A stretch of 64,000 nucleotides of DNA from Thermoanaerobaculia bacterium (GTDB lineage: Bacteria; Acidobacteriota; Thermoanaerobaculia; UBA5066): assembly GCA_963719225.1 (NCBI GenBank), contig CAVRAY010000001.1, positions 3,584,001 through 3,648,000 of the forward strand, written 5' to 3'. Every line of letters begins with the position of its first letter. The first letter of the stretch is position 1. The position numbers were made by a program, and so were the translations under genes. Of the stretch, positions 60,952-64,000 are shown one piece after another. Below the pieces are notes generated by a model. That model did no database searches. It saw nothing but the letters and a program-made list of their open reading frames with translations, and had not been told where the DNA came from.

Positions 60952-61028
60952 GGGGCTGTAGCTCAGTTTGGGAGAGCGCCTGAATCGCACTCAGGAGGTC
61001 GTCAGTTCGATCCTGATCAGCTCCACCA
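60952..61028 (+). tRNA. tRNA-Ala(CGC)
   Basis: GGGGCTG/CAGCTCC acceptor stem with G3:U70, anticodon arm CCTGA-ATCGCAC-TCAGG, GTTCGAT T-loop, encoded CCA. Confidence 0.97.
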
Positions 61029-61117
61029 CTTTACGTAGCTTCCGAGAGCTCCGGTACAGCAAACGGTAACGGGTCGCGTGCTTGCGGTTTGGACCGGTTT
61101 CCGCTGAACTGAGAGCC

Positions 61118-61345
61118 ATGAAAAGCACGAAAACGAAGGCCGAGCCGCGTACGACGCGTGGCTCGCGTGACCTGAAGACCGCGCTCAAGAGAGCGGCCGC
61201 CGCGCTCGAGAAGGCGGCCATGGCCGCGCCCCGGACCCGCGGCTCTCGCGACCTGAAGGTAGAGATCGAGCGCGCGAAGAAGGCCGTCAAGAAGGCCACG
61301 GCGATCGCGCGGACGACACGCGGCTCTCGCGACCTGAAGAGCTGA
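61118..61345 (+). CDS. Small basic protein with three TRGSRDLK repeats
   Basis: 75 aa; repeat conserved at the protein level with synonymous DNA variation; host-like codon usage. Confidence 0.6.
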   Translation: MKSTKTKAEPRTTRGSRDLKTALKRAAAALEKAAMAAPRTRGSRDLKVEIERAKKAVKKATAIARTTRGSRDLKS

Positions 61346-61529
61346 GCCGACTCCCCCTCTCTCATGGCCCGCTGGTCACGGCGCGTGCGAGGTGCAAGCG
61401 TGCGTGAGCGCACCCTCGCGCACGCGCCGTGCCCGCTAGCGACTCGACAGGAGGCTTCGCCGACGCCGAGGACACGCCCGAAGAGCACGGCCGGAGACAA
61501 CGCCCCCGGCGGCTCCGGCGAGAGGGGCT

Positions 61530-62420
61530 GGTGGCGCCGGCCGCGGCGGCAGCGCGCGTGCCGGGCCCCTCTTCCCCGGCCCTTCTCCCGGCACGCGCGC
61601 TGCAAACGCCGCTTGCCGATAAACGCGTTTATCGGCTCCGGTGCTTTTCATTTCCCGGCCGCGCGTGCGCGGCCGGGGGCACCCCTCTCGCCTCCGGGCG
61701 TCGCTTCGCTCGGCCGTTTACATAACGTGGCGCTATGTAAACCCGCCGGGGGCATTAAGGCGCGCGCGAATAGCGCGAGCTGCTTGAAGGCCTGTCATTG
61801 CGCGTGCTTTCTTCGCGCGCGTGCGTTTGCGGTCCTCGACGGGGCTGCGGTCCTCAACCCACGCGCGCGGCACGCTCGTGCCAGGCCGGGAGAGCGCGCG
61901 GGGCACGAAGGCACCGCGCGCGGCCTCCGGCCGCGCGCCGGAGGCGCGCAGCGCGCGAAATCTCTGGTGCTCCGGGGCGCGGCGCGAACCGTGCCGCGCG
62001 CAGGATCGAGGACGCGCAGGGACGAGAACCGCAGATGCCGCGCGCGAAGCGACGCACGGAGCGTGACGCGCCTACAGCGCCCGCGCCGAAGGCGCGCGCG
62101 AAAATTCTTCGCGCCGCTTCTCGAAGCCACGGATCTCGAGGAGGCCCCGGCGCCAAGCCCCCGCGCGCGCGAGTTGCTGCGCGCTACGGCGCGCAGCCTC
62201 AGCACATAGCGCTCGCGTTATGTGAAGGGCGCGAAGCGCCCCGGAGGCGTGCGGGGTGCCCCCGCGAAACGAAGTGAAGCGGGAAATGAAAGTGCCGGGG
62301 ACGGTAATAGGCCATTACCGGCCAGCGGCCGCGCGCGCAGCGCGTGGATGCAGCGCGCGTGACGGGCAGGGGAACGTGGGGCCCCGCCCGGCGCGCGCGC
62401 CGCAGAGCGCCCGGCGCCAA
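61530..62420. repeat. ~0.9-kb imperfect long inverted repeat (giant palindrome) with nested hairpins
   Basis: Left arm aligns to the reverse complement of the right arm, e.g. TTTCATTTCCC 61646-61656 / GGGAAATGAAA 62281-62291, and ACATAACG..GCGCTATGT at 61720 / 62204-62223. Centre hairpin at 61923-61945. Confidence 0.85.
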
Positions 62421-62658
62421 CGCCCCGCACGCCGGAGCTCGCGCGCGCGGGGCGGATGGTGCGCCGGGTACGCCGAGAGGAAAGCCGATCAGCGCGGAGC
62501 AGTCGAGAGCCGGGAGCGCGGCGCGCCGCTTGCGCGAGAGCGCGACGACCGAGCACGTGTACTCGCGCGCGTAGGTGGTCGCGCGCGAGCCGCAGCAAGC
62601 GGCGTGACGTCGCGGGCCGTCAGCGAGGGAAGTGCACTCCAAGCCGAGGCATCACGAA

Positions 62659-63048
62659 TCAGGCGCCGCGACTCTTCGCCCGGCGCTCGGCCAGCGCATC
62701 GATGATCTTGAAGACGGCCTTCTGGTCGTGCGGAGGCAGCTCGTCGAGTCGCTTGAGATGTTTCTGCCGCTGCACGCTCGTCGCGGGCGCCGCTCCCCCG
62801 CTGCGCTCCGGCGCCTTCTTGCGGCCGAGAAGAATGTCGGTCGAAACGTCGAGCGCGTCGGCGATCGCGACGAGGAGCTCGGGTGGCGGGGAAACTCCGC
62901 GCACCTCGTAATAGGTGATCGTCTGCTGCGGCACGCCAATCTTCTTGGCGAGCTCGGCCTGCGTCAGACCCTTCGCGATCCGGAAGCGCCGAATCCGGTC
63001 CCCGAGCGTCTCAGTATTGCCTGATTTCTTCTTCCGTTTCCGCGCCAT
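62659..63048 (-). CDS. XRE-family HTH transcriptional regulator
   Basis: 'LGDRIRRFRIAKGLTQAELAKKIGVPQQTITYYE...P...L.AIADALDVSTDILLG'. Confidence 0.9.
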   Translation of the reverse strand: MARKRKKKSGNTETLGDRIRRFRIAKGLTQAELAKKIGVPQQTITYYEVRGVSPPPELLVAIADALDVSTDILLGRKKAPERSGGAAPATSVQRQKHLKRLDELPPHDQKAVFKIIDALAERRAKSRGA

Positions 63049-63101
63049 TACCGCCGAGTTTAGGAGTGCTTCGGCAACACAAAGGCTAGCCGGGTTTGCC
63101 A

Positions 63102-63124
63102 GATTACATAAGACTTGTGTAATC
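63102..63124. promoter_or_regulatory. Operator-like inverted repeat GATTACA-N9-TGTAATC
   Basis: Perfect 7-bp arms in the AT-rich divergent region between the XRE and deaminase genes. Confidence 0.55.
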
Positions 63125-63311
63125 ACGGAGGCATCATCGGTACAGCAGGCGGTCAGGGGTATTTGCCCTAGGAAACGTGCTCACCCACTCGTAAGGCCTC
63201 GCTTTTTGGGGGAAAATGCTCGTGTCAGCCTTTATCGCAGACAGTCGCGCGCTGTCGCCCGGACCGCCACCGCGGGCTGCGACGCTTCCCTCCGCCTTAG
63301 AATCCTAGTGA

Positions 63312-64000
63312 ATGTCCGAACAAGACAACGCATTGATGCGAATCGCCGTTAGCGAGGCGTCGAAGTGTGTGCCTGAGAATGGTGGCGCCCGTCCGCGCGT
63401 CGGCGTAGTCGTGGCAAAAGATGGCGAACTCCTCTGTTCAGCACATCGCGGCGAATTGAAACCTGGCGAACACGCAGAATTCACCGCCCTCGAAGGGAAG
63501 CTCGCAACGACCCCGGTAGCGGGGGCCACCCTCTATACGACCCTCGAGCCGTGCACATCTCGCAACCATCCGAAGGTGCCGTGTGCAGAGCGCCTTATCC
63601 AGAGAAAGATCGCGCGCGTGCTCATCGGGATGCTTGATCCAAATCCAAACATATCGGGCCGCGGTCTTCGTCGTCTGCGCGAAGCTAATATCGTTACTGA
63701 ACTCTTCCCATCAAACCTAATGGCGGAACTCGAGGAGCTCAATCGAGAGTTCATCGCAACCTTCCCCTCCGCTGGGGCGGCTCCTCGCGCGGCCGAGCTA
63801 GCCCCTCCGACTCCGTCCGGCCCGTCTCCGGTCGACTACTCGCCTATCGTCCTTACCGGCAGGGGCCAACAAGCGTCGGCCCTTTTTTCCCTAAAAGCAG
63901 GCCTCCACGTCTTCAAGCTATCGCATGACGGGATGGGCCATTTTGGTGTCTGGCTACTCGACACCCGGGGTAACAAGATCGACCTACTAGCGAATCAGAA
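63312..64000 (+). CDS. Partial (3'-truncated) zinc-dependent deaminase (RibD/dCMP-deaminase-like) fused to a beta-rich C-terminal domain
   Basis: Hand-translated, absent from the ORF track: MSEQDNALMRIAVSEA...PRVGVVV...EHAEF...LYTTLEPCTSRNHPKVPC...IARVLIGMLDPNP; frame open to the window end. Confidence 0.88.
   Translation, partial: MSEQDNALMRIAVSEASKCVPENGGARPRVGVVVAKDGELLCSAHRGELKPGEHAEFTALEGKLATTPVAGATLYTTLEPCTSRNHPKVPCAERLIQRKIARVLIGMLDPNPNISGRGLRRLREANIVTELFPSNLMAELEELNREFIATFPSAGAAPRAAELAPPTPSGPSPVDYSPIVLTGRGQQASALFSLKAGLHVFKLSHDGMGHFGVWLLDTRGNKIDLLANQ

Follow-up and report, generated by a model that had tools for sequence, protein, structure and literature searches.

A kilobase-scale palindrome with DNA-type hairpin loops in a tRNA-Ala mini-element of a Thermoanaerobaculia bacterium: a candidate replication origin folding as single-stranded DNA

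In IncQ plasmids such as RSF1010, the origin oriV carries ssiA and ssiB, inverted single-stranded DNA (ssDNA) hairpin modules on opposite strands with a CCGAAGG-type mini-hairpin; primase and helicase are encoded by the element itself, and non-autonomous derivatives keep the origin (available parts of PMC13037366, PMC6925257 and PMC8567376). In particular, GNA mini-hairpins have a far higher stability in DNA than in RNA, resist nucleases, bind SSB poorly and occur at G4, RSF1010 ssiA and N4 sites, G4 and ssiA being priming sites (PMC13037366, in the part available). The IncQ features have counterparts in the locus described here, a giant imperfect palindrome near one end of a window of 64,000 nucleotides from a Thermoanaerobaculia bacterium (GCA_963719225.1, contig CAVRAY010000001.1). 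Inverted hairpin modules lie on opposite strands, as in IncQ-type origins, with a polarity that varies by lineage. In contrast to IncQ, the modules are of about 550 nt rather than 40 nt, a DnaG primase fused to an MCM-like ATPase takes the place of RepB'/RepA/RepC, the element is integrated with no mob genes seen, and its origin function is a prediction.

The cHTH/Prim-Hel/SymE gene neighbourhoods beside RHS and haemagglutinin genes, as presented in the available text of PMC1891008, have in common with the elements treated here the pair of an XRE and a DnaG-MCM gene, the toxin context and a XerC, which here passes the NF002331 cut-off. Indeed, the XRE/primase/XerC block at a paralogous locus of the same genome is this Prim-Hel/cHTH neighbourhood. 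The giant palindrome, by contrast, was found in this Acidobacteriota-like family alone, and the string 'palindrom' does not occur in PMC1891008. XerC/D genes are also described beside polyimmunity loci (PMC3482391, in the part available).

IMEX such as CTXphi and RS1, with their attP(+), share with the elements described here an RstR-like repressor, tandem arrays and a pair of inverted Xer-like sites that base-pair with each other once folded. Here, however, the two sites are present in this genus and not conserved family-wide, no HUH Rep was found, and in place of host XerCD acting at dif the elements use their own recombinase or the integrase of the tRNA site; none of the units is at dif, their places being tRNA-Ala or the vicinity of Rhs genes. 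The palindrome is about ten times larger than the CTX attP. Satellites of the PICI and P4 type combine a tRNA att site, a tyrosine integrase, a divergent repressor and a primase-helicase, all shared with the elements described here, which differ in that no capsid-hijacking genes were seen, the mini-element lacks int and pri, and the cis region is a GC-rich palindrome. The T-shaped terminal hairpins of parvoviruses such as AAV, with a long stem, two small ears and arm sequence exchange, also resemble the palindrome, which is however bacterial, internal to an integrated double-stranded element and unaccompanied by a HUH Rep. GOLLD, ROOL and viroid-like RNAs are comparable in size, tRNA neighbourhood and rod-like fold, whereas the palindrome has no Rfam match and carries DNA-type loops on both strands.

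Self-alignment against its own reverse complement extends the palindrome to about 1.19 kb (Table 1); the initial annotation had rightly recognized it and put it at ~0.9 kb, which is too short. The alignment contains 408 Watson-Crick pairs and 103 mismatches and scores 492, compared with a maximum of 280 among 1,188 genome windows of 1,250 nt and a mean of 186 (maximum 228) in 20 dinucleotide shuffles. Folding is equally distinct from shuffled controls, with z-scores of -17.2 (RNA, plus strand), -17.5 (DNA, plus strand) and -16.4 (RNA, minus strand) and 0/20 shuffles as good. The base composition is ~74% G+C, and an AT-rich melting region is absent. The hairpins singled out in the initial annotation (the perfect 17-bp stem, the 22-mer with its mirror, the cTACGg loop at 62176-62197 and GCGAAGC) and the right-arm insert are all in the sequence. 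The TACG loop is not conserved, reading TACC in 3/6 close homologs, and neither is the hairpin originally taken as the centre: the feature kept there is an overlapping hairpin with a TCC loop. Nor do the arm differences show the suggested G-T/G-U bias, with 19 G-T and 23 A-C mismatches on the plus strand and a similar balance in most homologs.

Table 1. Parts of the mini-element and its palindrome (window coordinates).
Feature	Position	Strand	Basis or remark
tRNA-Ala(CGC), integration target; 3' half supplied by the unit (attL)	60952..61028	+	3' half recurs at the ends of both copies
Non-autonomous mini-element, 2,256 bp, no integrase, no primase	60984..63239	.	comparison with second copy
Left core ATCGCA in the anticodon loop; probable crossover region	60984..60989	+	comparison of unit ends
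Left copy of 23-nt direct repeat; likely integrase arm-type site	61052..61074	+	83% to 63138-63160
75-aa basic ORF with three 27-aa repeats; accessory	61118..61345	+	absent or replaced in some units
Giant palindrome, imperfect and non-coding, of backbone helices and side hairpins	61382..62571	.	self-alignment, folding
Side hairpin with perfect 17-bp stem	61549..61603	.	mirror at 62350-62403
Side hairpin H3, exchangeable module, perfect stem, unrelated sequences	61615..61636	.	mirror at 62302-62320
Site A hairpin	61716..61742	-	folds better on minus strand, -12.7 vs -10.7 kcal/mol
Centre: overlapping pair of C-GNA-G mini-hairpins	61916..61949	.	14 nt apart
Centre GGA loops	61926-61928 (minus), 61940-61942 (plus)		within 61916..61949
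C-GAA-G mini-hairpin	62082..62096	+	conserved in mini and Rhs-type copies
Site B, inverted partner of site A	62204..62226	+	pairs with A in predicted rod
GCGAAGC mini-hairpin	62227..62241	+	sequence
XRE repressor; best NCBIfam match RstR	62659..63048	-	63.9 bits, under cut-off 80
Palindrome upstream of XRE, likely XRE operator	63102..63124	.	sequence
Right att arm ending CCTTT-ATCGCA	63138..63239	+	comparison with integrase arm

The palindrome is non-coding, as the initial annotation held, because 70 of 74 indels among six close homologs are non-triplet, which rules out the coding reading of a 281-aa ORF that runs across it. Near-full-length copies with 81-95% identity are present in six other genomes of the genus and pieces occur in environmental runs, so that an assembly artefact is ruled out; some match, often weak, is found in 41/61 genomes. 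The Rfam scan of the region returned the tRNA as sole match, the palindrome used as query against plasmid DNA gave none, and its central pattern had 0 matches in viral contigs.

The loops of the hairpins are of a DNA type. The window copy has 6 GNA-loop hairpins where shuffles give 0.62, and nowhere in the 4.75-Mb genome are C-GNA-G clusters denser than in the two palindrome copies. In these loops the middle base is free (GAA 52, GCA 23, GGA 18 and GTA 15 across 23 palindromes), with counts that overstate the number of events since the loop and hairpin sequences are related and not independent. The same holds at the centre: at 13 central T-shaped twin sites, located without fixing the loop sequence, 25/26 loops of other genera read T-N-C with N varying, while the twin is otherwise invariant with one stem covariation and folds better on the GNA strand. 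GNA loops also outnumber the UNCG type (41 GNA versus 2 plus-strand UNCG loops in 11 sequences). As to polarity, 18/18 plus-strand loops of this genus lie right of the centre and 6/8 minus-strand loops left of it, and in other genera 56/82 loops are on the minus strand. The C-GNA-G pattern with N alone free points to folded ssDNA rather than RNA.

The arms represent an old inverted duplication, because all left arms form one clade (support 0.997) in an outer-arm tree of this genus, and the mirrored position of the hairpins is an automatic consequence of this origin. Left-right identity within an element equals that between elements of the same lineage (0.607 vs 0.608; 0.594 vs 0.591), and whole hairpins have moved between arms and between elements. 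In the side hairpins, stems persist through sequence turnover; indeed, H3 has a perfect 7-13 bp stem in 29/30 arms with about eight unrelated sequences. Double changes lean modestly to compensation (226 vs 126 of 1,050), and column variability is 16% at long-range paired, 29% at locally paired and 38% at unpaired positions. Compensations in the long-range rod number just 2-3, by pair counts from our own script without the controls of covariation tools. Thus, the two selected conformations proposed earlier, one long rod or many local stems, are weakly supported: the local hairpins covary strongly, but the rod has almost no element-specific compensation. Sites A and B, which we take to resemble Xer-binding arms such as those of dif, are inverted with unequal spacers of 7 and 8 nt and pair in the plus-strand DNA fold. 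At the position of site A, several variants in the arm alignment read AAC-loop-GTT and carry an additional G on their 3' side, which resembles the extrahelical bases of integron attC. The breakpoints of half-palindromes differ from case to case and do not fall at A or B; an IS3-like insertion accounts for one interruption. Eight mini-elements that lack every large gene still have both arms intact.

The mini-element consists, in order, of the tRNA 3' half, the basic ORF, the palindrome, the RstR-like XRE gene and the att arm. The 75-aa protein had no match in Pfam, NCBIfam or Atlas; it is 44-92% conserved in several mini-elements and possibly DNA-binding. A second copy of the unit, differing at 4 positions, lies 18,057 bp downstream, directly behind a tyrosine integrase situated 16 kb downstream of the right att arm, and is followed by a third tRNA half; the right att arm is 77% identical over 146 bp (including the tRNA half) to the arm at this integrase. 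The two copies enclose 15.8 kb of cargo. This island opens with a deaminase-domain ORF (dCMP_cyt_deam, 372 aa; 63312-64000 of the window and on to 64430) and also holds a sigma-54 regulator, a MacB-type ABC system, a SIR2-like protein and a DUF433/PIN pair.

As in tRNA-integrating elements, att repeats flank the unit and the tRNA 3' half is replaced. Behind the downstream copy, and behind 7 related units in relatives, there is a displaced tRNA half, while at the right end of the window copy only the 6-bp core is kept. Units at CGC sites end in CCTTT-ATCGCA, and those at tRNA-Ala(GGC), present in 2 genomes, end in CCTTT-ATGGCA. Among 28 tRNA-Ala(CGC) loci examined, 22 show the tRNA (two with <200 nt downstream), and 6 of these 22 have a palindrome at most 1.5 kb away; relatives thus differ in whether the site is occupied, empty or filled by something else. 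The small ORF and the XRE gene are each absent from some units, and one unit consists of the right half alone. At the CGC locus of one relative (L130, G017) an XRE gene and att arm are found without palindrome; therefore, tRNA-type units without it exist. Contigs that join the right arm to a tRNA half are compatible with attR as well as attP. Neither the DnaG primase and MCM-like ATPase gene nor a XerC of NF002331 is present in the mini-element, which also lacks the divergent gene found upstream of XRE in autonomous elements, and no capsid-size or packaging-redirection genes are in its 2.25 kb. Judging from these features, the unit is a mobile non-autonomous element with the tRNA as attachment site. 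The palindrome does not have this role, because the att core sits at the anticodon loop, and it was also rejected as a split att junction since the breakpoints of half-palindromes vary. Helpers in the same genome would likely lend the mini-element both integrase and primase-helicase; a close integrase is found in 1/60 genomes and the primase-helicase in 2/7 other mini-bearing genomes (drafts 81-98% complete).

A 72% paralog of the palindrome is located in the same genome at C1 1.4255-1.4269 Mb, between a large Rhs gene with its cargo and an XRE/primase/XerC block, after which Rhs tips and immunity genes follow. This locus (C1 1.4275-1.4323 Mb) encodes the DnaG primase with MCM-like ATPase, a CHC2-Toprim protein of 1,048 aa, and a XerC above the NF002331 cut-off. 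The integrase, primase-helicase and XerC-like recombinase that befit the mobile element envisaged initially were thus all located. The block is flanked by a 564-bp Rhs-core repeat with 95% identity, as would be expected from integration of a circle by homology. The C-terminal half of the primase, modelled at pLDDT 87, folds like an MCM helicase: the best Foldseek matches are MCM subunits (E 4e-10, TM about 0.4), and the ATPase groups with the plasmid-named family PF27228, sequence searches of PDB and Pfam having given no name. The left terminal hairpin of the palindrome is duplicated (89%; C1 1420807-1420890 and 1425519-1425600) around cargo behind an Rhs immunity gene. In several genomes, fragments of the left end come after immunity genes and could mark the insertion point of cassettes.

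Across the bacterial family, palindromes of 1.0-1.9 kb go together with XRE/DnaG-primase-MCM-helicase/XerC elements that lie beside Rhs toxin cassettes or in tandem arrays, and the primase is found in 22/61 genomes, often as tandem units. All 23 palindromes taken (7 of this genus and 16 from primase-XerC loci of other genera with enough flank, several shorter contigs being left out) beat all 20 shuffles. The centre pattern alone retrieved 9 metagenome contigs, 5 of which carry XRE, primase or XerC by tblastn; among the other four, one has an XRE-like end and a toxin-immunity-like pair and three are under 2.3 kb. In an Acidobacteriota record the primase is 86% identical and the palindromes 84% similar. 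A 10.5-kb contig (L045) with 85% primase identity is almost exactly one element; it comes from a Bacteroidales bin, carries a coverage of 157 in its name and is possibly a high-copy form or a binning error.

Further away, no giant palindrome was found at 21 distant primase-XerC loci (8 plasmid records and 13 other lineages of the phylum), some of which have short hairpin tracts, and GNA mini-hairpin density is at background at 33 distant loci. The giant form is therefore not needed family-wide and was rejected as a universal feature of primase-XerC elements. Two small circular 'plasmids', NZ_CP072857.1 (11,289 bp) and NZ_CP055112.1 (8,758 bp), hold only XRE, primase, XerC, SymE and toxin-immunity genes and may be excised or replicating forms of this distant family. 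An Enterobacter element (L084 18960-19030) has two inverted CATAA-n-TTATG sites in a compact hairpin like the CTXphi attP, and a single hybrid-looking site at the boundary of its first unit.

Collectively, these data suggest, with a probability that we place near 0.5, that the palindrome is a conserved cis-element folding as ssDNA and serving as the replication origin of XRE/primase-MCM-helicase/XerC elements, here carried by a helper-dependent mini-element. This reading is favoured because of the element-encoded primase-helicase, the inverted priming-type hairpin modules on opposite strands and the satellites that keep the palindrome. Indeed, mini-elements retain the palindrome together with the att arms but have lost rep and int genes, just as oriV is retained in IncQ satellite plasmids (PMC6925257, in the part available). 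Upon induction, XRE repression would be lifted and the tRNA integrase would excise a 2.25-kb circle, on which the DnaG-MCM protein would load at the palindrome and unwind it. Each strand could then fold its own inverted hairpin module, whose GNA-capped stems would stay free of SSB and mark priming sites for strand-displacement synthesis in both directions, as at ssiA/ssiB of IncQ. Displaced single strands would snap to a rod with extruded side hairpins, a form that may protect them and permit swaps of hairpin modules between arms; amplified circles would re-integrate and yield tandem arrays, and Rhs-linked elements would exchange toxin tips by homology. Against an origin stand the absence of an AT-rich region, the scarcity of primase (2/7 mini-bearing drafts) and integrase (1/60 genomes), the distant relatives without the giant form, the varying strand polarity of GNA loops, a left-right identity no higher within an element than between elements, and the few rod compensations.

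The initial annotation had offered a folded attachment site alongside an ssDNA origin, and single-strand folding in a mobile element, common to both, is supported. Such a site would resemble the CTXphi attP(+), with the inverted A/B pair in the ssDNA rod acted upon by the element's XerC-like recombinase. The geometry of the pair fits, as do the tandem arrays, the place of the palindrome downstream of an RstR-like gene, similar CATAA-n-TTATG hairpins in some distant elements and the CTXphi architecture (PMC3442271, in the part available). We nonetheless hold it to be unlikely: a pattern search finds B in none of the 16 other-genus palindromes and A in just 8, with unrelated hairpins in their stead, half-palindromes do not break at either site, mini-elements recombine at the tRNA, and the Rhs-type element is bounded by the Rhs-core repeat. 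Less probable still is that the palindrome serves to transfer, package or protect an ssDNA form, whereby the rod with its mini-hairpins would shield or label the strand and replication would start elsewhere. The folding evidence applies to it as to an origin, the central twin resembles the T-shaped ends of parvoviruses, and a cis signal for a helper is plausible since the elements examined showed no genes for transfer; nuclease resistance and weak SSB binding of mini-hairpins also fit (PMC13037366, in the part available). On the other hand, no relaxase, capsid or packaging gene was seen in the loci, the central pattern is unmatched in viral contigs and phages gave no full-length primase match.

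The large structured ncRNA that had also been put forward, whose transcription would start from the tRNA or a promoter close by, now looks very improbable. RNA folding is strong, the palindrome sits behind a tRNA, and pieces appear in contigs of four RNA libraries, although the RNA runs had small shares (0.07-0.11) and contigs, giving neither level nor strand, do not count as evidence here; yet there is no Rfam match, caps are GNA triloops rather than GNRA or UNCG and occur on both strands, the G-U bias is absent and the sole UNCG loop is not conserved. We give the least credence to a functionless relic of the inverted duplication whose shape is kept by gene conversion between arms. That the arms are old paralogs swapping modules, that many decayed halves lie behind immunity genes and that the rod shows scant compensation would all suit a relic, but hairpins are kept amid sequence turnover, the G and A of the loops do not vary, variability is lowest in backbone columns, and both arms persist in 8 mini-elements stripped of large genes.

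No description of the palindrome or of the mini-element was found in the literature searched, mostly main texts from outside subscription journals. The palindrome would work in the manner of folded ssDNA origins, which are known, but by the features tested it belongs to none of IncQ, IMEX and PICI. More tentatively, the elements may be ssDNA-intermediate integrative replicons of a class not described before, with 2-kb satellites that parasitise them and depend on two unrelated helpers; as part of the same tentative reading, 1-2 kb of branched DNA with exchangeable hairpin modules and GNA-capped ears might load a primase-MCM fusion and drive amplification as well as Rhs tip exchange. Structured DNA of kilobase scale rarely occurs in nature with covariation that matches structured RNA in clarity. 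If the palindrome is an origin, it represents a defined substrate for a bacterial DnaG-MCM primase-helicase, and the 2.25-kb mini-element is a natural minimal construct that makes testing an origin cheap.
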